A stretch of 64,000 nt of DNA from an uncultured Mycoplasmatota bacterium (GTDB taxonomy: Bacteria > Bacillota_I > Bacilli_A > RF39 > UBA660): positions 11-64,010 of the forward strand of contig USRP01000001.1 in NCBI GenBank assembly GCA_900557185.1, written 5' to 3'. The notes below the pieces were generated by a model. That model saw only the letters and a program-made list of their open reading frames with translations. It did no database searches and was not told where the DNA came from. The position numbers and the translations under genes were made by a program. This document shows, in pieces, positions 3,838-52,146 of this stretch (position 1 is the first letter of the stretch; the number at the start of each line of letters is the position of its first letter).

Positions 3838-4778
3838 TGGATAAAATTTCGATTGTTGTACCTTGTTATAATGAAGAAGAAAGTATTCCACTATTTTATG
3901 AAGAAATTAAAAAACAAGAACAGAAAATGAAAGATGTATGTTTTGAGCTCTGGTTTGTAGATGATGGTTCAAAAGATCGTTCCTTGGAATTAATGAAAGA
4001 ATTACATGAGAAAGATAAAGAAGTACATTATCTATCTTTTTCGAGAAATTTTGGAAAAGAAGCAGCTATTTATGCAGGATTAGAAGCTGCTACCGGAAAC
4101 TATATTACTTTGATGGATGTAGATTTACAGGACCCTCCAAAACTATTAGAAGAAATGTATGAAGGGATTACGAAAGAAGGATATGATGTAGTTGCGACAA
4201 AAAGTACAAGTCGTAATGGCTATTCCTTCTTCCGTAAAACATTTACAAAGTGGTTCTATCATTTAATCAATAAAATCTCTAAAGTAGAAATGGTTGACGG
4301 AGCAAGAGATTTCCGTTTAATGAAACGAAAAGTTGTCAAAGAAATTATAAAAATGAAAGAATATAATCGCTATTCAAAAGGACTTTTCAGTTTTATAGGA
4401 TTTAAAACAAAATGGATTACTTATGAGAATCCAGAACGATCAGCAGGAAATACCAAATTTAACTTTTGGAAATTATTTGCTTATGCAGTAGAAGGAATTG
4501 TAGGTTTCTCAACTGTTCCTCTAGCAATCGCTGCGATTGTCGGTCTACTTTTCTGTTTAATTTCATTCTTAATGATTATTATTATCATTGTTCGTACACT
4601 GATTTGGTCAGATCCAACGAGTGGATGGCCATCTATGGTTTGTATTATGTTTTTCTTAAGTGGAATTCAATTATTCTGTACAGGAATTATTGGTGAATAT
4701 CTTTCTAAAACATATTTAGAAACAAAACATCGTCCTATTTATATTTTAAGAGAATCAAGTGAAGAGGAGGAAGAGTAA
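3837..4778 (+). CDS. csbB: Family 2 glycosyltransferase, CsbB/GtrB-like (undecaprenyl-phosphate sugar transferase) with two C-terminal TM helices
   Basis: N-terminal VVPCYNEEE…DDGSKD… and DVDLQDPP (DxD) motifs of GT2 dolichol-P-mannose-synthase-like enzymes. C-terminal membrane anchor. ATGA overlap with yfhO. Confidence 0.7.
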   Translation: MDKISIVVPCYNEEESIPLFYEEIKKQEQKMKDVCFELWFVDDGSKDRSLELMKELHEKDKEVHYLSFSRNFGKEAAIYAGLEAATGNYITLMDVDLQDPPKLLEEMYEGITKEGYDVVATKSTSRNGYSFFRKTFTKWFYHLINKISKVEMVDGARDFRLMKRKVVKEIIKMKEYNRYSKGLFSFIGFKTKWITYENPERSAGNTKFNFWKLFAYAVEGIVGFSTVPLAIAAIVGLLFCLISFLMIIIIIVRTLIWSDPTSGWPSMVCIMFFLSGIQLFCTGIIGEYLSKTYLETKHRPIYILRESSEEEEE

Positions 4779-4790
4779 CTCCTCTTTTTG
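4764..4790 (+). terminator. Intrinsic terminator after csbB-like gene
   Basis: gaggag…ctcctc stem followed by ttttt. Confidence 0.5.
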
Positions 4791-4834
4791 AATGTCTGGT
4801 TATTTTTGGAATATGTTGTAATAGAGGTGTTCTC

Positions 4835-6343
4835 ATGAAAGATAAAGGATTGATTTTGCTACTGAGTGTTCCAATTGTTATGAGTTTATTTTTTCTTAGT
4901 ACGTATTTATGTATGCAGTTAAAATTAAAAGGAAAAGCAACCATGGTTGTCAAATACAAAGAACCATTTCAAGATCCAGGAGTAACCGCAACAATCATGG
5001 GGAAACCAACAAAAGTAAAAATTCATGGAAGAGTAAATATCAATCAAATTGGAACCTATGAATTAGTGTATGAATTGAAAAATCGTATTGGTATGGTACG
5101 AAAAAAAACCAGGACAGTCATTGTCAAGAGTAACGAAGCACCAACTATCACATTAAAAGGAAATGAGATTGAATATGTAGCTTTAAATACAACATATGAA
5201 GAACCGGGATATACTGCAGTTGACGTAGAAAATAATGATCTAAGTGATCAAGTAATTACGAGTGGTGAAGTAGATCCAAAACGATTTGGGATTTATGTTA
5301 TTAAATACGAAGTGATTGATAAAAGTGGAAATAAGACCGTTACAAAAAGAAAGGTAATTGTAAAAGATAATGAGAAACCAACGTTAGAATTGAAAGGATA
5401 TGAAGCAATTACACTATATACAGATGAGAAATACGAAGAACCAGGTTTTATTGCTACTGATAACATGGATCATGATATTACCAAAAAAGTGATTGCTAAA
5501 GATAATATCAAACAAAAACCAGGTGTTTATCAAGTCAAGTATCAAGTGACTGATTCTAGTGGAAACACAGTCAAGAAAGAACGACAAGTATATGTTATAA
5601 AACATGAAACATATAAAGATGAATATGACAATTTAGATAATCAAACAAAAGGATGGTGGTCTGATAATAAATTAGATCATAAAAGACCATTAGGTGGTAA
5701 TTACGGTAAATCATTAGAAGCATACCATGCTTATCATTTAGGAGAAAATAAAAAGATTATTTATTTAACATTTGATGAAGGTGGTAATGAAACATATATG
5801 AAAGAAATTGTCGATGTATTAAACAATAATCATGTCAAAGCAACTTTCTTTCTCTGCCAAAACTATATTGCTACAAATGATACTTTGATAAGAGAAATGG
5901 TCAATGCAGGACATAGTATTGGAAATCATACCCATCATCATAAGAGCATGCCTAGTTTAGCAACCAAAGAAACATTTGATGAATATGTAAAAGAAATCAA
6001 AGATGTAGAAAATATCTATCACCAAGTTACAGGAAAAGAAATGGATAAAATATATCGTGAACCAAAAGGAGAATGGAGTGAACGCAGTCTAAAAATTGTC
6101 AGTGACTTAGGATACTATACTTATTTTTGGAGTGCTGATCACTATGACTTTGGAGAAGATGTTTCCAAAGAAGAAACACTGAATCGTTTGTTAAAAAGAT
6201 ATCACAAAGGAGCAATTTATTTGTTACACCCTAAGAATAAAGGAAACTATGAAGCATTAGACGAATTCATTAAAACAATGAAAGAAAAAGGCTATCAATT
6301 TGGTCTCGTAAAGGACATACAAAGAACACAAAAACAGAGTTAA
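4835..6343 (+). CDS. Secreted/membrane-anchored polysaccharide deacetylase (NodB homology domain) with four N-terminal Ig-like (DUF5011-type) repeats
   Basis: N-terminal signal/TM segment. Four repeats of ~75 aa (…KYKEPFQDPGVTA…, …YEEPGYTAVD…, …YEEPGFIATD…). C-terminal TFDEGG…HSIGNHTHHH…LLHP motifs of CE4 deacetylases. Confidence 0.65.
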   Translation: MKDKGLILLLSVPIVMSLFFLSTYLCMQLKLKGKATMVVKYKEPFQDPGVTATIMGKPTKVKIHGRVNINQIGTYELVYELKNRIGMVRKKTRTVIVKSNEAPTITLKGNEIEYVALNTTYEEPGYTAVDVENNDLSDQVITSGEVDPKRFGIYVIKYEVIDKSGNKTVTKRKVIVKDNEKPTLELKGYEAITLYTDEKYEEPGFIATDNMDHDITKKVIAKDNIKQKPGVYQVKYQVTDSSGNTVKKERQVYVIKHETYKDEYDNLDNQTKGWWSDNKLDHKRPLGGNYGKSLEAYHAYHLGENKKIIYLTFDEGGNETYMKEIVDVLNNNHVKATFFLCQNYIATNDTLIREMVNAGHSIGNHTHHHKSMPSLATKETFDEYVKEIKDVENIYHQVTGKEMDKIYREPKGEWSERSLKIVSDLGYYTYFWSADHYDFGEDVSKEETLNRLLKRYHKGAIYLLHPKNKGNYEALDEFIKTMKEKGYQFGLVKDIQRTQKQS

Positions 6344-6399
6344 ATTTCTATACAAAGATTTCTTTTTATAGTATAATGAAAATATAAGGAGTGTGTCCT

Positions 6400-7917
6400 A
6401 TGACAGAAGATAATAAAAAGGTGAAAAACCAAGAAGAAATGCCTCATTTAGAACCATCTCAAGAAGTAGATTTCCAAATGGGGGAAGAAACAGAAAAAGT
6501 AACACCTAAAGTAGAGGAAACAAAAAAAGAAGAAGTAAAAAAGCCAACATTAGAAGAACAAAAAAGAGCAGATGAAAAGAAATTACATAAGAGTTCGCCA
6601 AAGATTTTTGTTATTTTGGCAGCAGTAATCTTAATTGTAATTAGTTTTGTAGGGTATTATGTATTTGCCTCTAATCCTAAGAGAATATTAGTTTCATCCA
6701 TTGATTCATTAAATAAGAAAATGAATACTTTAAATACTAACATAAGTAAATATCAAACAAACTTAAAAGATAATTTTAAATTAGATGGTAGCATGTCTGT
6801 AAAAATCAATTCTGATATTTTAGAAGCATATGGTTCTATGGGAATGTATCCAGAATTAACACAAATATTAACTAATTTAGAAAATACAGAATTTCAATAT
6901 GAATATCAACAAAATATAGAAGATAAAAAACTATATTTTAAATTAACACCAAGCTTAAATGGAAAAGAATTAACAAATGTTACTTATTATAATGAGAGTA
7001 GTAATCAATACATATTAATTAAAGAAATCGCTTCAGAATACTTAGAATTAAATCAATTAGATATCTTTGATACATTACAAAATACAAATATGGATGATTA
7101 TAATTATATTGTTGATGTAGTAAAAGATAGTTTATATCAACATGTAACAAAGAACGATTTTAATATCAGTAACGTCAAAGTAAAAATTGATGGCGAAGAC
7201 AAAGAAGTAAAGAAAGTTGCTTTGACATTAGATGCGAAAAGAGCAAACGAATTATTTGATCAAGTAATCAATGATTTAAAGAAAGATAAAAAAGCCAATA
7301 AGATTATGAATCGTATTTCTCCAGAGTTTAAAAATTATAAGAAACAAGAAGTAGATAATAAAGATTCTTCTGTTTTGAATTTTATAACTTATGTTACAAA
7401 ATTCTCTCATGAACCAGTAAAATATGCTTTAACAGTAACTGATTCTTATACAAAAAAAGAAAGTGGAATGGCTTTCACTGATGGAGAAACAAAAGAGTTT
7501 GAAATTATTGAAAACGAAAAAGTAATCGGTACAATTGAAATAAAAGGAAATCTTGAAAAGTTTGACATCACATTAAAAGATGCAAACGGAAAAAGCTTAG
7601 GAACAGGAAAAGGTTCTTATCAAGAAACAAAAGCTAATTTTGATATGTCATTGAATATGGATAAGGATATGGTACTAGCTTTTCACATGAATGCGAAAAA
7701 GGCTGGAAATCAAACTGATTCATCATTCCAATGTGAAATTTTAAGTAGCGATAATCAAAGTTTATTATCTTTTGAAATTGCTGATACAAACACGATTGAT
7801 AATAATACTAATATTAAAGTAGACACAGAAGGTAGTAGAAAAATGACAAAAGCAGACGAACAAAAACTATCTACTTGGCTACAACAATTACTTGCAAATT
7901 ATTTAATTACAGAATAA
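6400..7917 (+). CDS. Hypothetical single-pass membrane protein with a Lys/Glu-rich cytoplasmic N-terminus and a ~400 aa extracytoplasmic domain
   Basis: Long ORF. RBS aaggag 8 nt upstream of ATG 6400. TM helix IFVILAAVILIVISFVGYYVFA. No recognisable family. Confidence 0.5.
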   Translation: MTEDNKKVKNQEEMPHLEPSQEVDFQMGEETEKVTPKVEETKKEEVKKPTLEEQKRADEKKLHKSSPKIFVILAAVILIVISFVGYYVFASNPKRILVSSIDSLNKKMNTLNTNISKYQTNLKDNFKLDGSMSVKINSDILEAYGSMGMYPELTQILTNLENTEFQYEYQQNIEDKKLYFKLTPSLNGKELTNVTYYNESSNQYILIKEIASEYLELNQLDIFDTLQNTNMDDYNYIVDVVKDSLYQHVTKNDFNISNVKVKIDGEDKEVKKVALTLDAKRANELFDQVINDLKKDKKANKIMNRISPEFKNYKKQEVDNKDSSVLNFITYVTKFSHEPVKYALTVTDSYTKKESGMAFTDGETKEFEIIENEKVIGTIEIKGNLEKFDITLKDANGKSLGTGKGSYQETKANFDMSLNMDKDMVLAFHMNAKKAGNQTDSSFQCEILSSDNQSLLSFEIADTNTIDNNTNIKVDTEGSRKMTKADEQKLSTWLQQLLANYLITE

Positions 7918-16048: not shown

Positions 16049-16771
16049 ATGGAAAGATTACAAAAAGTGATAGCCAATGCTGGTTATTGTAGTAGAAGAA
16101 AAGCGGAAGAAGAAATTAAAAAAGGACATGTTACAGTCAATGGTAAAATTGTTGTTGAACTAGGAACGAAAGTAGATAGTACAGATGTCGTAGAGATTAA
16201 TGGTACAGTCATTAGAAAAGAAGAAAAAAAAGAATACATTTTATTTTATAAACCAAGAGAAGTGATTACAACGGTACATGATGATAAAGGAAGAACAACT
16301 GTATTAGATTATATTGATACAACGGCTCGTATTTATCCAGTAGGTAGATTAGATTATGATACTACAGGATTATTACTTCTTACCAATGATGGAGAACTTG
16401 CTAATTTATTAATGCATCCAAAAACAGAAATTGAAAAAGTATATGTAGCCAAGGTAAAAGGAATTTTAAGTGCTCCAGAAATTAATAAATTAAAAAATGG
16501 AGTAGTGATAGATGGTAGAAAAACATCTCGTGCGAAAGTAAAAGTAAGAAAAATTGATAAAAAAGCTGGTACAAGTATTGTTGAAATTACAATTCACGAA
16601 GGAAGAAATCACCAAGTGAAAAAAATGTTTGAACATGTTGGACATGAAGTATTAAAATTAAAAAGAGAACGTTTTGCCTTTTTAGATTTAAAAGGATTAC
16701 ACTCTGGAGAATACCGTTATTTATCAATTAAAGAAGTAAAAAAATTATATGCTTTAGTTAGCCATAAATAA
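16049..16771 (+). CDS. rluB: 23S rRNA pseudouridine synthase, RsuA/RluB family
   Basis: N-terminal S4 domain (…CSRRKAEEEIKKGHVTVNG…) and catalytic VGRLDYDTTGLLLLTNDG motif. Start chosen at MERLQK. Confidence 0.75.
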   Translation: MERLQKVIANAGYCSRRKAEEEIKKGHVTVNGKIVVELGTKVDSTDVVEINGTVIRKEEKKEYILFYKPREVITTVHDDKGRTTVLDYIDTTARIYPVGRLDYDTTGLLLLTNDGELANLLMHPKTEIEKVYVAKVKGILSAPEINKLKNGVVIDGRKTSRAKVKVRKIDKKAGTSIVEITIHEGRNHQVKKMFEHVGHEVLKLKRERFAFLDLKGLHSGEYRYLSIKEVKKLYALVSHK

Positions 16772-16800
16772 AAAATGATCTGTACGATCATTTTTTTGTA
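16772..16800 (+). terminator. Intrinsic terminator after rluB
   Basis: aatgatctgtacgatcatt hairpin followed by tttttt. Confidence 0.5.
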
Positions 16801-16838
16801 ACAACCCACTTTTTATGTCAAATAAAAAAATGAATATC

Positions 16839-17042
16839 TTATTCATTTTCTTCTGATTCTTCTTGAATTGCTCCAACTGGACAAAGATCGATGGCTTCTT
16901 TTGCTTCTTCTAATTGTTCTTCTGTTAAGTTTTCTTTTTCTTTCGCAAGTCCATTGTCATCCATTTCAAAACACTCTGGATAACTACCAAAACAAGCTCC
17001 ACAACCAATACATATATTTTGATTTACTTTTACTTTTTCCAT
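16839..17042 (-). CDS. fer: 4Fe-4S ferredoxin
   Basis: CIGCGAC…C and …CPVGAI cysteine ligand pattern. Small acidic protein. Start at MEKVKV is preferred. Confidence 0.7.
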   Translation of the reverse strand: MEKVKVNQNICIGCGACFGSYPECFEMDDNGLAKEKENLTEEQLEEAKEAIDLCPVGAIQEESEENE

Positions 17043-17118
17043 TTTATCACCCAGTTCATTATACAAAAATACCGGGAAAAATACAAGGAAATGGTTTCAA
17101 AAAAAGTCGAATTATGTT

Positions 17119-17919
17119 ATGATAATAATACGAGGTGATGTAGATATGGCAAGTCGTATGGATAGATACCGTAATCAAGAAGTAGAGCCAACTGGTATGC
17201 GTACGAAAAGAAATGAACATTTATATGCCAGAGTAGAAGCACCTCTAGAATATTCTAGTGTCGAAGGTGTGGCTAGAATTGATAATACAAGTTCTGTTGA
17301 TATTAATAAGATTAAAGAATTATTAATGAGAGAAGAAGAACCAAAGAAAAGAGTCCATCCTATCATAGAAGAACAAGAGGATCTTGATGAAACGGGAGAA
17401 ATCGCAACGTTCCAAGATTTGGATGAAAAGAATTACGATATTAGAGATATTTTAAATAAAGCCAAAGGGGAAAGAGAAGAAGACGATGATGATCGTTATC
17501 GCTCTTTACAAGATACTGGATATGATATTTTAAAAAATATTAAAATTCAAAACCAAGAACTAGAAATTAATGAAAAAGAATTAAAACAAGTGGGAGATAC
17601 AACTCTTAGTTTATCTATGTTAGATAGTTTACGTGAAGATGGTGAAGATGAAGAATCGAAAACGATTCAAGATTTACTAGCTTCAGAAAAAGAATCATTG
17701 AATCAAGAAGACGATGATGATTTTGAAGAAGAAAGAACATTAGATAATTCTTTCTTTACGTCTAGTTTGAATTTTAGTGATGAAGATTTTAACGAATTAA
17801 GTGATGAGTTAGATGAACCAAAGAAAAAAGGAAATTTATTTGTGAAAGCTATTTTATTCTTAGTTATGGTAGCTCTTACGACGGCAGCGATTTTCTTTTT
17901 AGCAAATTATTTAAAATAA
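17119..17919 (+). CDS. Hypothetical highly acidic protein with a C-terminal transmembrane anchor
   Basis: D/E-rich 266 aa ORF ending in a hydrophobic helix (AILFLVMVALTTAAIFFLANYL). Alternative start at 17146. Confidence 0.4.
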   Translation: MIIIRGDVDMASRMDRYRNQEVEPTGMRTKRNEHLYARVEAPLEYSSVEGVARIDNTSSVDINKIKELLMREEEPKKRVHPIIEEQEDLDETGEIATFQDLDEKNYDIRDILNKAKGEREEDDDDRYRSLQDTGYDILKNIKIQNQELEINEKELKQVGDTTLSLSMLDSLREDGEDEESKTIQDLLASEKESLNQEDDDDFEEERTLDNSFFTSSLNFSDEDFNELSDELDEPKKKGNLFVKAILFLVMVALTTAAIFFLANYLK

Positions 17920-45311: not shown

Positions 45312-45845
45312 ATGACTTTATATTTAGTAAGACATGGAGAAACAGATTGGAATTTAGAAAATAGAATTCAAGGGGATAGTGATATTCCATTAAATCAAAC
45401 AGGAATTTTACAAGCAAGAGAAGTGAAAGATAAGTTAAAAGATATTGCATTTGATCTTTGTTATACTTCTCCTTTAGAAAGAGCCTATAAAACAGCCCAA
45501 ATCATCATCGAAGGGAAATGCCCAATTATTTCTGTTCCCGAGCTCATAGAGCGTGATTTTGGTAAAATAGAGGGGAATCCAATCACATCAGAACAATCTA
45601 AAAAATATTGGAACTATCAATTAAACTCTAGTGATGATGAAGTAGAACCAGTAAGACATCTATTAGACCGTACGAGAAACTTTTTAATAAAATTATTACA
45701 AGAACATAGAAATCAAACCATTTTAATTGTTACCCACGGTTCTACATTAAGAGCACTACACTATAACATAACTGGCTATCAAACAACAGAAGACTTCATG
45801 AAATTTCAAGTTCAAAATTGTCAAATCTTTCAATATGAGATATAA
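45312..45845 (+). CDS. Histidine phosphatase family protein (phosphoglycerate-mutase-like)
   Basis: N-terminal [10 protein letters not shown] catalytic motif. Confidence 0.65.
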
Positions 45846-46299
45846 TGAAAACGTTGGTGATAACATGGAAATAGTAAATAGAAAAGCAAAATTTGACTAC
45901 GAAATTATTGATACATATGAAGCTGGAATTGTCTTAACAGGAACAGAAATTAAATCATTAAGACAAGGAAATGCAAATATCAAAGATAGTTATGCAGTAA
46001 TTAGAAATAACGAAGCATATCTTTTAAATATGCATATTAGTATCTATAAAGAAGGAAATCAATTTAATCATGATGAAACACGTACGAGAAAATTATTATT
46101 ACATAAAAAAGAAATTTATAAATTACGTGACAAAATCGCATTGAATGGTTATACTTTAGTTCCATTAAAAGTATATTTTAGTAAAAATTATGCTAAAGTA
46201 TTACTAGGTCTTGGTAAAGGTAAGAAAAATTACGATAAACGAGAAGCTATGAAGAAAAGAGATACAGAAATGTATTTGAAAAAAATGACAAAATATTAA
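45835..46299 (+). CDS. smpB: SsrA-binding protein
   Basis: Strong similarity to the SmpB N-terminus (…[29 protein letters not shown]…) and C-terminal basic tail. Alternative start at 45865. Confidence 0.8.
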
Positions 46300-48698: not shown

Positions 48699-48995
48699 TT
48701 AGTGTCTTTCATGTAATCTACGCTTGATTTGTATGATTAAATCAATTGGTGGTTTTTCCATCTGATTTAATACAAGTAAAGCATCTTGTAATTTTGTTTT
48801 TAATGAATAAGTATCTTTAATATGTTCTATTTCATTGTCTAATTCAAAACTTGAACTAGGATTTTGCTTCATAAATTCAATAATATATTCTTTGATATCT
48901 TGTAACACAAATTCTTTTAATGGGTAAGAATCCATCTCCATGACACCAAAATAGCCACTAATCATATATCGATAAGCATCTTCTATTTCTATCAT
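48699..48995 (-). CDS. Hypothetical protein
   Basis: 98 aa ORF. No family recognised. Confidence 0.35.
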   Translation of the reverse strand: MIEIEDAYRYMISGYFGVMEMDSYPLKEFVLQDIKEYIIEFMKQNPSSSFELDNEIEHIKDTYSLKTKLQDALLVLNQMEKPPIDLIIQIKRRLHERH

Positions 48996-49091
48996 TCTAT
49001 CACCTGTAAATTTATTTTATCAAAGAAATAAGTGAAAAGCTACTATCTATATTATAAATTTTATGCTACCATAAAGATGGTGAAAAGGTGA

Positions 49092-49865
49092 GTGATTGAT
49101 ATGACATTTGATTTTGAAAATTTTGATGGTACGAATAGTGATATTATTGAAATAGTGTCATCAGAATCAGCATTGAAATTATTAAAACGTAGTGGGAATA
49201 AAAACATAAAAGTTTGTTTACCATTATCATTATATATTGGTAAATTGGACAGCATGAAGCCGTTTAATAGAAAAGTACTATCTAAATATTATAAAAATAA
49301 TGCCACTTATAATTTTACTGATGTTTTTCATAAATTAGAACAAATTATTCAGCATTGTACAAAAATTAGAATTTGGTCTAGTCATTTAGATAGCGATTCT
49401 TATTGTTTATTGTTATTGATATGCTATTTATTTCAAGATAAGAAAATTAGCGCTATTTTTTCTGAGGAATTGGATGGGAATGCCCCATCAATTACTTCAT
49501 TAAGTGAATTAGAAATTCACGATTCAGAAAAGAGAGAACATGTATTAACGCAATTACAAAAAAATGATTATTGTGAACAATGGGAAAAAATAGTTAATGA
49601 TAATAAAGAATTAAGATATATGATGAATGGAGTTGTTATATCTTGTGATATAGATTCTTTTAATCATGAGATTATAGATAGATTAAAAGAAGTGAAAAAA
49701 GCATATATATATTATTTCATCACAGACTTAATGATTCATCCATCAATTCCAAATGTCATGTTTCCGGATATGTTTTATAAGTATTTAATAGAAAATTTAG
49801 AATCGGATGGAATTATAAAAAGTTCTATTATAGATGGAAAAAAATATATAGAATTAAATCAATAA
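49092..49865 (+). CDS. Hypothetical protein, possibly DUF1835/DUF3658-like
   Basis: 257 aa. The N-terminal …IIEIVSSESALKLLKRSG… weakly resembles the DUF1835 start. Low confidence. Confidence 0.3.
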   Translation: MIDMTFDFENFDGTNSDIIEIVSSESALKLLKRSGNKNIKVCLPLSLYIGKLDSMKPFNRKVLSKYYKNNATYNFTDVFHKLEQIIQHCTKIRIWSSHLDSDSYCLLLLICYLFQDKKISAIFSEELDGNAPSITSLSELEIHDSEKREHVLTQLQKNDYCEQWEKIVNDNKELRYMMNGVVISCDIDSFNHEIIDRLKEVKKAYIYYFITDLMIHPSIPNVMFPDMFYKYLIENLESDGIIKSSIIDGKKYIELNQ

Positions 49866-49971
49866 AATATTTTAAAATTGTTAGGTGGAGAACAATAATG
49901 TGTTGCAATTGCTAGAAGTTAATTTTATGTTTGGAAAATGATTTGCGATGATGAACCACCTGGTAGCTTAG

Positions 49972-50014
49972 ATAAAAAAACAATGAATAACTATGATTTT
50001 TCATTGTTTTTTTG
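49972..50014. terminator. Bidirectional terminator hairpin (aaaaaaacaatgaa…ttcattgttttttt)
   Basis: Inverted repeat caatgaa/ttcattg flanked by A7 and T7. Confidence 0.45.
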
Positions 50015-50146
50015 TTGATTAAAATATTTTGCCATTTCTCTTACCATCATTCTATGAAACATAAATTACACCTTCTTTGAATTTTTATATTTATGTAGTT
50101 TTCGAGTTCTACAAATTTAATATTTTTACTCAAGTTATTTTTTTAT

Positions 50147-50193
50147 AAAAGTTCGTGTATTTGAACAGATTTCTATAATGGTGCCGTTGAGGA
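50147..50193. repeat. Imperfect (~85%) direct repeat of the tmRNA 3' end (last ~14 nt) plus its terminator hairpin; putative distal attachment-site remnant
   Basis: aaaagttcgtgtatttgaacagatttctataatggtgccgttgagga matches aaaagttcgtacttttcgaacagatttctataatggtggagctgagga at 51727-51774. Confidence 0.5.
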
Positions 50194-50291
50194 AGTTATC
50201 TACAACTTTTACCAAAGGTAACTGATGTATGAATCAATCACTATATACATTATAATCCATTTTTTATTTTGAGGTTAATTATTTAATACAT

Positions 50292-51332
50292 TTACATTTT
50301 TTTCACAGAAGTTTCATTATAGTCATTATTTTTTTGCTCTTGCATAATTTCTTCAACTCTATGTACTACTGATTTTGATATTGCCTTGCGATTTATGGTA
50401 AAATTATTTTTTCTTTCAACATCAAGTTTGTAATCAATCATCATATCTACATCATCTTTTATAATCCTTGCATCATATCTATCTTTTGGACGTGAATTCT
50501 TTTTTGAATTGTAAATACTTTCTAAACTCATCATTTTATAAGGGATACCATTATGATATCTTATTAAATTAGAAAATGACATATCTGTATAATCTTTAGA
50601 AAAATGATGTTCATCAACAAATAGTTGTTTACTACCATTTTGATTTTCAAAATAATATTCTTTTGTAGTTATACTATTATCTGGTTGTCGTTCAAACAAA
50701 AATAAACCGATACTCATAGGAGTTCCTTTATATACGATTTTATATTCATGACCATTAACTTCTTTATGAGCCATATTACTAATAAATTCAAAATCTGCAC
50801 TGGAATCTATTAAGTCTTTTAATGTTATTAATTGTTGTTCATTTATAAATAAGTCTAAATCTCCATGATATCTTTCTAACACATGATTAGTTGCTAAATA
50901 GCCCATAAGTCCACCTGTATAATAGCAATCAAATCTTCCTTCAATTAAAGCGTTGAATTCATCGAAAGCATCAATAACTAACTGATGATTTTCTGTTAAA
51001 GGCATATTTGGATGTTCCATATTCATACCTTTAATCCAATTTAGTCTGGCAATCAAATCATTAACAGATGTATACTGTTCAGGGTTTAATTTTATAATAG
51101 ATTCAACATTTGCAAAAATATCTTCTTCGGTTATCATCTTTCTATTTAGTAAATCATTTAATGAAACCAAAATAGCATCAATAGAGTCACTTATATTCAT
51201 TGAACACAATTTGTTAATAGTATCATATATTTGATCTTGATTCGTAATATTTGCCCGTTGTGCAAAAGTATAAACTAGTTTAGTTACAGTTTCTTTTTGA
51301 AATTCATTCATACAGCACCTCATACTTTCCAT
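50292..51332 (-). CDS. Extended nucleotidyltransferase with a LinA/Lnu(A)/ANT(2'')-like core (Pol-beta superfamily)
   Basis: Central YYTGGLMGYLATNHVLERYHGDLDLFI block aligns with the Lnu(A) YWLDGGWGVDVLTGKQQREHRDIDIDF and ANT(2'')-Ia WIGGGWAIDARLGRVTRKHDDIDL motifs. A downstream S-x-E-S-I block matches the family's second conserved region. Extra ~125 aa N-terminal domain. RBS gaggtg. Confidence 0.5.
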   Translation of the reverse strand: MESMRCCMNEFQKETVTKLVYTFAQRANITNQDQIYDTINKLCSMNISDSIDAILVSLNDLLNRKMITEEDIFANVESIIKLNPEQYTSVNDLIARLNWIKGMNMEHPNMPLTENHQLVIDAFDEFNALIEGRFDCYYTGGLMGYLATNHVLERYHGDLDLFINEQQLITLKDLIDSSADFEFISNMAHKEVNGHEYKIVYKGTPMSIGLFLFERQPDNSITTKEYYFENQNGSKQLFVDEHHFSKDYTDMSFSNLIRYHNGIPYKMMSLESIYNSKKNSRPKDRYDARIIKDDVDMMIDYKLDVERKNNFTINRKAISKSVVHRVEEIMQEQKNNDYNETSVKKM

Positions 51333-51509
51333 TCAATTATATCATTAATTTTGGTAATTTACTATATTTCCAAATCAAAGTCATCGTGATCTTTGTGTTT
51401 TTCAATTTTTCGTAAACCTTTTACACTCTGAATTGCATTGTTTGTTCAAGAAAGTGTACTATAATAACCGCTTTTTTCTATATTTTATGATAACAGATTT
51501 CTGTTTTTA

Positions 51510-51539
51510 TCACTTGAATAGGGTAAAGTACTCATTCAT
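51510..51539 (-). other. Candidate leader mini-ORF (MNEYFTLFK, 9 codons) with a perfect SD GGAGGT, followed by a bulged hairpin, ~175 nt upstream of the nucleotidyltransferase gene
   Basis: Minus strand reads gaaaGGAGGTaaaaATGAATGAGTACTTTACCCTATTCAAGTGA, then tgataaaaacag-aaat-ctgttatca hairpin overlapping the stop. Confidence 0.2.
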
Positions 51540-51726
51540 TTTTACCTCCTTTCATAGATATATTTTGGCTCTAACAAAATATTTAACCCCCTAGGTATTT
51601 TGACATAAACATCAAAATAACCTGTGGAAAAAGGGATATTCCCTAAACCCCTTTTAGACTTGTTTCTTCTAGGTTGATTTTTTCATAAAACGAAAAAATC
51701 AATCATTTCTGATTGATTCCTATATC

Positions 51727-51774
51727 AAAAGTTCGTACTTTTCGAACAGATTTCTATAATGGTGGAGCTGAGGA
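51727..51774. repeat. Proximal copy of the direct repeat: tmRNA 3' terminus plus its intrinsic terminator
   Basis: Overlaps tmRNA nt 51760-51774. On the tmRNA strand the hairpin gttcg-aaaagta-cgaac + uuuug follows the CCA end. Confidence 0.5.
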
Positions 51775-52146
51775 GAGTCGAACTCCTGTCCAAATATAAA
51801 ACTCCCTAACCATCTACAAGTTTAGTTCACAAAGGATGTCCTTATAAAAATTAGATGTGAACGTCTATTTTATAAGTAAGCTTGTATGATTCGTTATTAT
51901 TTCCAAGCTAAATAATAATATATCCTATTTTAATCGAGCCCTTATCAATTCCCAATAGGAGAAAGAATAAAAAGAGCCATTCCTGCACTTTTCTTAGGCA
52001 AAAGTAGGAGTAGCGAAAGCGCTACTTAATCTACTAAGAATGTTAGTTAATTTATTTTTTCCAGTTATTTTCTGTTTGTACGTAACGTGTACCTCCGACT
52101 TGCCGAATTAAGCTTTTTTATATCCGTCGAAACCATAAACAGCCCC
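51760..52146 (-). ncRNA. ssrA: tmRNA (ssrA), standard one-piece form
   Basis: 5' GGGGCUGUUUAUGGUUUCGACGG… and 3' …GGACAGGAGUUCGACUCUCCUCAGCUCCACCA form the tRNA-Ala-like acceptor (G3:U wobble) and T-arm. Internal ORF candidate starts at GGA ~nt 85 and ends at UAA. Confidence 0.85.

Follow-up and report, generated by a model that had tools for sequence, protein, structure and literature searches.

A probable doubly deleted, CIME-like derivative of a serine-recombinase IME downstream of ssrA in an uncultured Mycoplasmatota bacterium

The 1,581-bp segment (50179-51759) that directly follows the tmRNA gene ssrA in the 64-kb stretch of DNA analysed here (the window) is very probably a non-autonomous, doubly deleted derivative of an IME of ~5.2 kb and resembles a CIME. 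The preliminary description had proposed that the remnant of an integrative element lies at the 3' end of ssrA, decayed to one cargo gene, and this proposal held: the segment is collinear with complete elements of 5.2-5.6 kb found at tDNAs, except for two internal deletions. Both attachment junctions of the parent family were recognized, the left end (LE, 51759-51675) and the right end (RE, 50255-50179) matching those of complete elements, and the loss of recombination and transfer genes could be read from the collinearity with the complete element L010, which is interrupted only at L010 positions 3975-6472 and 6723-7917. The segment has no site-specific recombinase of its own and is thus not an autonomous IME. 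A remnant of this type is a known kind of feature and an ordinary genomic scar; the element family behind the scar is poorly described. The finding accounts for a previously unannotated repeat in this genome.

According to the mechanism that we propose, the parent element would insert directly behind the encoded ...CACCA with which tRNA and tmRNA genes end, with a crossover at the very end of the target gene that would keep this gene intact. LE would supply replacement terminator hairpins and RE would carry a short mimic of the tDNA 3' terminus, as a result of which an integrated copy looks bracketed by a duplicated gene end. In the copy next to ssrA (element A), deletion 1 would have removed the gene orf91 and the recombinase gene, and deletion 2 the bulk of the relaxase gene. 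The two ends and the block upstream of mob (probable oriT) would have survived, and so would a cargo gene that is still intact and encodes a nucleotidyltransferase of the LnuA/ANT(2'') fold. A second copy of the family (copy B), of which ~90 bp survive, would once have been located distal to element A, which would account for the reappearance of the 'terminator' half at the far junction. Excision would leave the empty-site junction GCTCCACCATTATAGAAATCTGTTCAAATACACGAAC and the circular joint CTCAACGGCACCATTATAGAAATCTGTTCGAAAAGTACGAAC.

The repeat pair beside ssrA and its junctions

The ssrA gene is intact (51760..52146, minus strand; identified with ARAGORN and found full length with Rfam RF00023, 148 bits, model positions 1-374). 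Its 3' terminus (...CCTCAGCTCCACCA, last nucleotide 51760) is the integration target, and LE of element A (51675..51759, minus strand) begins directly after the CCA, reading TTATAGAAATCTGTTCGAA. This LE has 81-85% identity to the sequence after the CCA ends of tRNA-Thr, tRNA-Phe and tmRNA genes in L006, L010 and L044, and the terminator scan gave a first hairpin at 51747..51731 and a second hairpin with a T-run at ~51718..51692. The LE hairpins stand in for the native ssrA terminator, and the sequence that now probably terminates the tmRNA gene is imported element DNA.

A repeat search yielded a direct repeat at 50160-50193 and 51741-51774 (88% identity, spacing 1581), and hand alignment with one 1-nt indel gave 50147-50193 versus 51727-51774, an alignment in which 41 of 48 columns agree (~85%). 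The 21-mer core GAACAGATTTCTATAATGGTG has exactly two copies in the window, also in a search that tolerates 3 mismatches, compared with an expectation of 0.00 from 100 shuffles. The repeat was confirmed as it had been described, with ~85% identity and a perfect core. We assign copy 1 (51727..51774, minus strand) to the attL junction, consisting of the last 14-15 nt of ssrA and 33 nt of LE downstream of it, which include the hairpin at 51747..51731 (GTTCGAAAAGTACGAAC followed by TTTT). Copy 2 (50147..50193, minus strand) is assigned to a tandem-array junction, where the RE terminus of element A (50193..50179) is joined to the first 32 nt of the LE of another copy (50178..50147).

The far copy, whose tmRNA-like 13 nt read CTCAACGGCACCA, matches the ssrA terminus at 11/14 nt. 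Such a match could be taken as the mark of a classical tyrosine-integrase tDNA island, in which ssrA was split and its 3' end regenerated by the element, the far copy being the displaced and diverged ssrA end; moreover, no island target is more enriched than ssrA, and a tDNA plus fragment is the typical signature of such islands (Hudson et al. 2015, PMC4383910). We nevertheless regard this reading as very improbable. The far 'fragment' travels with the element: it is nearly identical to the RE at tRNA-Phe (CTCAACCGCACCA, L010) and in the L003 array (CTCAACGTCACCA), and RE is conserved across elements at tRNA-Thr, tRNA-Phe and tmRNA genes. In addition, CTCAACGGCACCA cannot pair with the tmRNA 5' end GGGGCUG, the two junctions of any one element (including those at tRNA-Phe and at the L044 tmRNA gene) have only CACCA in common, and the intact relatives encode a large serine recombinase only, with no integrase fragment left in the window. 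Both hallmarks of Islander-type islands, a tyrosine integrase and a distal repeat made of the displaced 3' fragment of the target, were thus missing, and the earlier view of the far copy as a diverged host ssrA end had to be given up. The far copy is the tDNA-mimicking RE of the element itself followed by LE sequence of the second copy, and the 'terminator' half of both copies is the LE of the element family rather than native ssrA flank. Of the description of the repeat as the tmRNA end with its own terminator, the hairpin and the last 14-15 nt of ssrA in copy 1 stand, but the terminator half is imported LE. The fusion of RE to LE in copy 2 indicates probable tandem accretion.

It is even harder to believe that we are dealing with a terminator motif of a general kind, or that the ssrA terminator was duplicated locally, without any mobile DNA being involved. 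The repeated part does hold a hairpin followed by a T-run, and similar CGAAC-loop-GTTCG hairpins follow the tmRNA genes of L053, L054 and L058. However, with only two occurrences in 64 kb the core is absent from both tRNA genes of the window, the motif is otherwise confined to the CCA ends of tDNAs and to the RE of elements, and the DNA enclosed by the copies has homologues in mobile elements that occupy other tDNAs. The possibility, raised in the preliminary description, that the repeat would prove a common terminator motif at many loci was therefore not borne out.

The RE of element A (50179..50255, minus strand; ...GTGATTGATTC...AAAAGTTGTAGATAACTTCCTCAACGGCACCA) terminates in the mimic of a tDNA 3' terminus and shows 87-88% identity to the RE of L044 and L018; the homology to contig L220 (99.9%) breaks off exactly at 50179. 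A junction of RE and LE equivalent to copy 2, with a complete LE, is present in L015. Copy B is nearly erased, with ~90 bp left: these are the 32 nt of LE plus the terminal part of orf91, the gene that comes first in elements of this family (last 16-17 codons, 50090..50139, minus strand; tblastn 81% over 16 aa, E ~3e-4, with collinear nucleotide matches to L044 and L006). Further out we found the relic of an ABC-transporter ATPase pseudogene (49869..49985, plus strand; LSGGEQ...DEP region with stop codons), which matches intact ABC genes that lie downstream of smpB in L017/L019 at 71-89% at the nucleotide level. This relic is debris from the host flank and shows how far out the element-derived DNA reaches; a structured RNA that had been suspected at 49.87-49.98 kb proved to be the same relic. 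A third RE-like end near 49078-49082 (TTTTCACCA), which would place the DUF1835 gene in the array, was rejected as there is no RE similarity past CACCA, and the short ORF 50063..49992 was ruled out as a recombinase N-terminus. The distal native flank of the array is itself decayed, as seen from the ABC relic, and this genome has no clean attR|host junction.

Complete relatives and the interior of the segment

Complete elements of the family measure 5,158-5,629 bp, have tDNA-CACCA|LE and RE-CACCA| as their boundaries, and were found at tRNA-Thr (L006), tRNA-Phe (L010), tmRNA (L044, confirmed with Rfam) and tRNA-Leu (L163) genes. The order in the parent (~5.2 kb) is LE, orf91, the gene for a large serine recombinase, the gene for a Mob_Pre relaxase, cargo and RE. 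In metagenomes LE follows the CCA ends of many tDNAs: a scan located it after the CCA of tRNA-Leu (16 hits), tRNA-Thr (8), tRNA-Arg (3) and tmRNA (8) genes, or after RE-like ends, and many of the metagenome copies carry internal deletions. The L006 recombinase (650 aa) matches PF00239 (5e-34) and PF07508 (2e-19), both above the Pfam cutoffs, and the zinc ribbon PF13408 only tentatively (3e-3, 18.4 bits versus a gathering cutoff of 25.3); the parent enzyme thus has the composition of the large serine recombinase family (Resolvase, Recombinase and zinc-ribbon), the last part being tentative. No tyrosine recombinase was found between LE and RE of L006, L010 and L044, which contain only orf91, the serine recombinase, Mob and cargo, as judged from gene tables (L006, L010), Pfam on the L006 proteins, and an ORF list plus protein comparisons (L044). 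We infer that the serine recombinase probably catalyses integration, with a crossover within or next to CACCA.

The joint of deletion 1 lies at 51650..51675 (minus strand), where a blastn comparison with L010 revealed that ~2.5 kb is gone (L010 3975-6472), namely orf91, the gene for the large serine recombinase and some of the spacer that follows it. Adjacent to it is a conserved block upstream of mob (51546..51627, minus strand), a candidate oriT/promoter with 82-90% identity to the recombinase-mob intergenic region of L006, L010, L044 and L168. The block is more conserved than the neighbouring coding DNA and contains the inverted repeats TATTTTGATG..GTCAAAATA and ATATTTTG..CAAAATAT, and we infer that it is a candidate for the oriT; the window reads TTTTCCAC where the aligned full elements have TAGCCCAC (3 substitutions). 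It is followed by the relic of a Mob_Pre (MobV-type) relaxase gene (51362..51529, minus strand), of which the first ~50-60 codons are fused at 51394/51393 to the last 11 codons and no ORF is left. The relic matches Mob aa 5-66 with 40-42% identity (tblastn, E ~3e-5), in agreement with blastn. Deletion 2, which removed ~1.2 kb (L010 6723-7917), lies within the relaxase gene, and its joint was also found in L003-L005, L136 and L220.

The preliminary description had noted the lack of an integrase and had suggested tblastn to look for pseudogene pieces. Pfam indeed detected no integrase or recombinase ORF anywhere in the window, and tblastn with three serine recombinases of the family over 48.9-51.8 kb returned only noise (E > 0.4), with no recombinase fragment. 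An Rfam E-value scan of the same 48.9-51.8 kb gave only the tmRNA end and chance snoRNA-like matches.

The decay into CIMEs and the tandem accretion of ICEs/IMEs at the 3' ends of tDNAs or genes have a precedent in the ICESt1/ICESt3-related elements of Streptococcus thermophilus (Guedon et al. 2017, PMC5704250); there the parents of the CIMEs are ICEs with a tyrosine integrase, whereas the unit in the window derives from a serine-recombinase/MobV IME. A precedent for serine-recombinase islands at ssrA is found in Dehalococcoides (McMurdie et al. 2011, PMC3146451). Like the family described here, these islands are serine-recombinase-associated and mobilizable, occupy the ssrA 3' end, can follow one another there as tandem arrays on the downstream side of the gene, and include members without integration modules (PMC3146451). 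In contrast to them, this family has a single recombinase of ~650 aa, a Mob_Pre relaxase, junctions that share ~5 nt (CACCA), an intact size of ~5.2 kb and several tRNA genes besides ssrA as targets; with its single large recombinase and ~5 nt of junction sharing, it does not belong to the Dehalococcoides type of ssrA islands. The clostridial IMEs Tn4451/Tn4453 (TnpX/TndX, the Mob/Pre-family TnpZ and resistance cargo) have the same module content as the parent family (PMC5704250; Pfam). Like Tn4451/Tn4453, the parent family has a single large serine recombinase, a single Mob_Pre relaxase preceded by a cis site, a single small cargo gene and very short end repeats. The insertion sites of Tn4451 are loosely defined and are not tDNA termini. 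The parent family differs in targeting tDNA termini, and the likeness to the TnpX elements described here is one of module content. Finally, Islander-type tDNA islands have the same target class (tRNA and tmRNA genes, with ssrA as a favourite), preserve the target and show a tDNA plus a tDNA-like fragment (PMC4383910), but in the present family the 'fragment' is a mimic carried by the element, and the crossover would lie at the extreme 3' terminus, not at the anticodon or T loop.

The comparison uncovers a small mobilizable family with a serine recombinase, insertions at the CCA ends of several tRNA genes and the tmRNA gene, tandem arrays and decay to mini-elements. More speculatively, and on balance with more doubt than confidence, this could be an undescribed and very widespread IME family of ~5 kb in gut Firmicutes, whose serine recombinase targets the CACCA of many tRNA genes and ssrA, which brings its own tDNA-end mimic and terminators, and which spawns mini-derivatives (two ends, oriT and one nucleotidyltransferase gene) that are still spreading between hosts in trans. 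If true, this would contradict the published generalisation that serine-family integrases are not known to target tDNAs (PMC4383910). If confirmed experimentally, the family would provide serine integrases with natural, near-universal tDNA-end targets, possible tools for genome engineering, and it would constitute a route for candidate resistance genes among gut Firmicutes.

Occurrence in related genomes and other loci

In the closest sister genome (L013, SmpB 99%) ssrA ends in CACCA and is followed by its own, different hairpin/terminator and the next host gene, without LE or RE; the neighbouring DUF1835 gene is missing as well. We considered L013 as the precise excision product of the whole array, but its ssrA-proximal flank aligns with no junction of the window. 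By this comparison L013 is an element-free relative and not a clean empty-site allele. The expectation that an ssrA junction without the segment exists in relatives was hence met in part, with an element-free ssrA that is not a simple precise empty site. In a second relative (L015, SmpB 97%) a different array occupies the same place, with a junction of RE and a complete LE and a 48-codon relic of the cargo gene. The segment is present in every sampled strain of the species at 98.9-100% identity, with no strain-level polymorphism; samples that carry the species include ERZ27274221 and ERZ27304969. Its presence in all related strains had been named beforehand as an argument against an insertion; this applies within the species but not to the sister L013.

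Copies of the unit were also found at other loci. In L136 (OGRO01001164.1) a doubly deleted unit follows the CCA of tRNA-Leu(CAG), with 97.2% identity over 737 nt and unrelated flanks of 34% GC. In L220 (ONAT22-1 scaffold_13439) the match covers 1,386 nt at 99.93% identity, and its limit coincides exactly with the RE CACCA; the mini-element adjoins GerA/GerAC spore-germination genes, a flank that suggests a different host. The module with deletion 2 is present in further arrays too (L003-L005, 94%).

These copies bear on a refinement of the main reading, namely that the 1.58-kb unit is a still-mobile mini-element with functional attL/attR and oriT that is excised, mobilized and re-integrated in trans by the enzymes of intact relatives. 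This is a real possibility, to which we give somewhat less than even weight. It is in line with the occurrence of the same doubly deleted unit, with both joints, at tRNA-Leu(CAG) in L136, with the near-identical copy in L220 in what may be another host, with the deletion-2 module in L003-L005, and with the intactness of the cargo ORF and both ends. Against it, L136 and L220 are short-read metagenome contigs that each have one end (L220 is without the left end and L136 without the right end), and chimeric joins are possible at their junctions since exact stretches of 30-47 nt are common to LE and RE of different elements. Moreover, the TAGCCCAC block of the putative oriT, conserved elsewhere, carries 3 substitutions in the window copy, and the unit seems to have become fixed in the species, to judge from all strains sampled.

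The copies in the window and in L136, otherwise 97% identical, diverge over the first ~30 nt of LE, a mismatch for which a strict CACCA crossover is insufficient unless gene conversion followed. A crossover ~30 nt downstream of the CCA was tried as an explanation of this difference and rejected, as it would need LE-like native sequence after many unrelated tDNAs.

The cargo nucleotidyltransferase

The sole intact ORF of the segment is the cargo gene (50292..51311, minus strand, with the ORF reaching an ATG at 51332), which encodes a protein of 339 aa. The protein consists of an N-terminal helical domain of ~120 aa and a pol-beta-type nucleotidyltransferase domain with the LnuA/ANT(2'')-Ia fold. 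Its C-terminal ~200 residues share the fold and the G-G...D-x-D catalytic signature of LnuA and ANT(2'')-Ia (PDB 4wh5, 4fo1, 4xje, 5kqj), but the identity to these enzymes is only 10-15% and they lack the additional N-terminal domain. Residues G133-G134...D151-x-D153 are invariant or nearly so, and the G[GS]...DxD metal-binding signature is thus found together with the pol-beta nucleotidyltransferase fold. Searches of Pfam, NCBIfam and PADLOC gave nothing significant, and the absence of a Pfam, NCBIfam or PDB sequence-profile match places the protein outside these curated sequence families. The initial statement that the segment carries one gene, a nucleotidyltransferase, was therefore right as to the single intact ORF and, at the level of the fold, as to the label, which finds no support in Pfam, NCBIfam or PADLOC. 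Two other identities were discarded: the matches to IncFII RepA were faint (E ~0.01-0.02, far below the cutoff), and ThrRS, the sole return of the PDB sequence-profile search, was a chance match.

The cargo nucleotidyltransferase would be expected to modify a small molecule such as an antibiotic. We consider it unlikely that the protein is instead a MenT/AbiEii-like toxin for addiction or defence that acts on tRNA acceptor ends. In this uncultured gut lineage, whose genome is small, the only intact gene of the segment is thus cargo that was acquired horizontally and has the fold of an antibiotic nucleotidyltransferase. When looked up as an exact protein, the 346-aa form of the ORF found no match; the 339-aa form that starts at M8 is on record.

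The segment downstream of the tmRNA gene

A full-length ssrA gene (encoding tmRNA) was found on the minus strand at 52146..51760 by ARAGORN and Rfam. Its last 15 nt and the 33 nt beyond (51774..51727, repeat copy 1) recur at 50193..50147 (repeat copy 2), with 41 of 48 aligned columns identical and one 1-nt indel. The perfect 21-mer GAACAGATTTCTATAATGGTG has 2 sites in the 64-kb window with up to 3 mismatches allowed (0.00 expected from shuffles), so that a search for further copies of the repeat core returned just the two repeat sites within that stretch. The downstream half of the repeat includes a hairpin and then a T-run, which the terminator scan flagged. The duplicated tmRNA end and terminator of the preliminary description are thereby borne out as written, as is its bracketed segment with a single gene and no integrase: the sole intact ORF between the repeat copies is 50292..51332 (minus strand), and tblastn found no recombinase fragment in the segment.

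Homologues of this gene, 86% and 76% identical, respectively, occur on the compared contigs L006 and L010 as the last of four genes on one strand, behind a 91-aa ORF (orf91), a ~650-aa protein and a ~460-aa Mob_Pre (MobV-type) relaxase (mob). The ~650-aa protein has a Resolvase domain, a Recombinase domain and a weak match to Zn_ribbon_recom, which identify it as a large serine recombinase. In a nucleotide comparison the window segment is collinear with the L006 and L010 elements except for two internal deletions. The left end (LE), directly after a tRNA gene in L010, lies at window 51759→51675 (minus strand; L010 3892-3974), orf91 and the recombinase gene (L010 3975-6472) are absent from the window, the region upstream of mob with the first ~50 mob codons is found at 51627→51393 (minus strand; L010 6473-6722), most of mob (L010 6723-7917) is again absent, and the end of mob, the cargo gene and the right end (RE) occupy 51394→50179 (minus strand; L010 7918-9165). 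The relaxase relic was also recovered by tblastn, in which Mob residues 5-66 matched at 40-42% identity (E about 3e-5). The collinearity, the two deletions and an element-free relative (L013, see below) support the proposed integrative-element remnant at ssrA, and very probably the segment is what is left of an integrative mobilizable element (IME) with a serine recombinase and a MobV relaxase.

The window feature belongs to an already known kind of element remnant, and the parent IME family may be a new variant. Serine-recombinase islands in tandem arrays at ssrA are documented in Dehalococcoides, but these carry a pair of recombinases and 20-bp repeats and lack a relaxase (PMC3146451). Streptococcal serine-integrase IMEs insert inside genes (PMC5357655). 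The present family lies after the CCA ends of tRNA and tmRNA genes (tDNAs), and the Islander paper describes tDNAs as not known to be targets of serine integrases (PMC4383910).

Element ends and the far junction

Complete copies of the family measure 5,158-5,629 bp and start immediately behind the tRNA-Thr CCA in L006, behind tRNA-Phe in L010 and behind an Rfam-confirmed tmRNA gene in L044. In all three, ...CACCA is followed by a conserved LE with two hairpins, TTnnnGAAATCTGTTCGAAnnnnnCGAACTTTTGATATAGGAATCAATC..GATTG(A/G)TTTTTT, and the opposite boundary carries the conserved RE ...GTGATTGATTC...AAAAGTTGTAGATAAC(T/A)nnnnCAAnnGCACCA. Across elements at different tDNAs, the 13 nt of the RE that resemble a tDNA end vary little: they read CTCAACCGCACCA in the L010 element at tRNA-Phe and in the L044 element, CTCAACGTCACCA in contig L003 and CTCAACGGCACCA in the window. 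At tRNA-Phe and the L044 tmRNA gene, attL and attR have CACCA alone in common. Copy 1 is therefore the ssrA end plus LE, and what looks like tmRNA in copy 2 belongs to the RE of the element itself. A displaced host ssrA fragment was discarded as the source of copy 2, whose tDNA-like 13 nt recur in elements at other tDNAs. The earlier view of a diverged ssrA copy at the far junction hence does not hold, as both repeat halves are element-borne and the junction is a tandem-array joint. The reconstructed RE|LE joint has dyad symmetry, TTTCTCAA-CCGCACCA-TTGGGAAA (L010, L044), from which we infer that the crossover would lie in or beside CACCA, a position expected of a serine recombinase that uses a central dinucleotide.

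Past the CACCA of the RE, window 50178..50147 reads TTATAGAAATCTGTTCAAATACACGAACTTTT, a further LE of which just the first 32 nt are left, and ten bases beyond this stub 50139..50090 encodes NNLSKNIKFVELENYI, which matches the orf91 C-terminus (81% over 16 aa) and is accompanied by collinear nucleotide matches. Together these relics point to a second copy of the family, once distal to the first and now almost erased, whose LE would be the reason that the terminator half recurs at the far junction. At the equivalent place in the related genome L015, an RE runs into a complete LE, behind which 48 codons of the cargo gene seen in the window survive as a relic. This arrangement is proof of tandem-array formation at this ssrA gene. 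Further out than the orf91 relic, 49869-49985 (plus strand) contains the remains, interrupted by stop codons, of an ABC-transporter ATPase gene (LSGGEQ...DEP region); in L017 and L019 this gene is intact and lies ~2 kb downstream from smpB. The relic is host debris marking the outer limit of element DNA, and it shows that host sequence bordering the array was lost to deletions too.

In L004 (same MAG as L018), the RE of a cargo module (5992-6040) reads CCTCAGCTCCACCA instead of the usual CTCAACGGCACCA, and a decayed LE comes next. As CCTCAGCTCCACCA is the genuine ssrA terminus of the window lineage, an element RE may have recombined here with the true end of ssrA.

Relatives of the window

In the closest other lineage, L013 (SmpB 99%, ~91% nucleotide identity), ssrA ends in ...CACCA, followed by TATATGATTTTTTAATCCTTTTATGATAAGGATTTTATT and then a 98-aa gene (window position 48995); no LE or RE was found at this locus, and the counterpart of window 49005-51758 is missing. 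A DUF1835/DUF3658 gene (49101-49865, plus strand), which in the window separates the array from the 98-aa gene and which L015 has too, is also absent from the closer L013, which is therefore an element-free relative, not a precise empty site. This gene could have arrived as cargo of an old island, or it may be a host gene that L013 has lost. Nine further contigs of the window's species, recovered in different samples, match the window at 98.9-100% identity over 48.9-52.3 kb, so the scar is fixed at strain level. The anticipated absence of the ssrA-adjacent segment from relatives was thus seen in the sister lineage L013, but not within the species, where all nine contigs carry it.

The genes smpB (45835-46299, plus strand) and ssrA point towards each other at a distance of 5.5 kb, likewise in L013 and L015; in the more distant relatives L026, L030 and L044 the two share a strand, with ssrA 0.1-1.5 kb behind smpB. 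This order implies an apparent inversion of ssrA in the window's lineage, possibly linked to element traffic at its 3' end. The tag given by ARAGORN for the window tmRNA is unusually long (30 residues, VTYKQKITGKNKLTNILSRLSSAFATPTFA); tags in relatives begin GKNKL..., so the resume codon probably lies further downstream, giving ~22 residues.

Cargo, family distribution and possible mobility

The cargo ORF has 320 unnamed homologues and no Pfam, NCBIfam or PADLOC match; G133-G134...D151-x-D153 is invariant or nearly so. We take the product to be a nucleotidyltransferase whose substrate would be a small molecule, possibly an antibiotic. The complete L044 element has an unrelated 308-aa protein (16367-17293) in this slot, showing that the last gene occupies an exchangeable cargo position. 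Metagenome contig L001 is identical to the window across 20.8 kb except for four transversions within a 48-bp span (window 50826, 50848, 50858 and 50873), which hit the catalytic motif (R->stop, L->V and F->C in HGDLDLF, one synonymous). The window has the family consensus at all four sites, which marks the L001 variants as derived; they stem from a clustered inactivating event or else from faulty assembly.

A metagenome scan with the LE pattern CACCA-N(4-7)-AATCTGTTCGAAC gave 81 matches, preceded by the CCA end of tRNA-Leu (16), tRNA-Thr (8), tRNA-Arg (3) or tmRNA (8); many of the remaining low-GC matches lie behind an RE-like end, as at a tandem junction, or behind a tDNA truncated where the contig stops, and about 15 are chance matches on high-GC contigs. 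Where 3 kb or more of sequence lay downstream of a low-GC match (34 loci), recombinase sequence was kept at 13 and relaxase sequence at 13, in many cases as fused fragments, so internal deletion is the usual fate of these elements. A second LE type (GATTGATACCAAACTCGAAC..., GATTGATACCAAACTCGAACTTTTATGGTTCGGGTTTTAAT) follows many RE and tmRNA/tRNA CCA ends (L003 5662, L006 9137, L010 9166, L026 2580, L044 17401, L052 12262 and others) and probably represents a different element family with the same CACCA target.

The doubly deleted unit itself recurs elsewhere. Contig L136 carries it directly after tRNA-Leu(CAG), with 97.2% identity over 737 nt spanning both deletion joints, between unrelated flanks of 34% GC. 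Contig L220 matches window 51564→50179 at 99.93%, and its homology ends exactly at the CACCA of the RE, which fixes the right boundary of the element at 50179; beyond lie another LE-like sequence and GerA/GerAC genes, suggesting a different, spore-forming host. Chimeric assembly is a possible source of these joins, as both are short-read metagenome contigs and LE and RE hold exact stretches common to different elements; taken as genuine, the two copies suggest that the mini-element was mobilized in trans.
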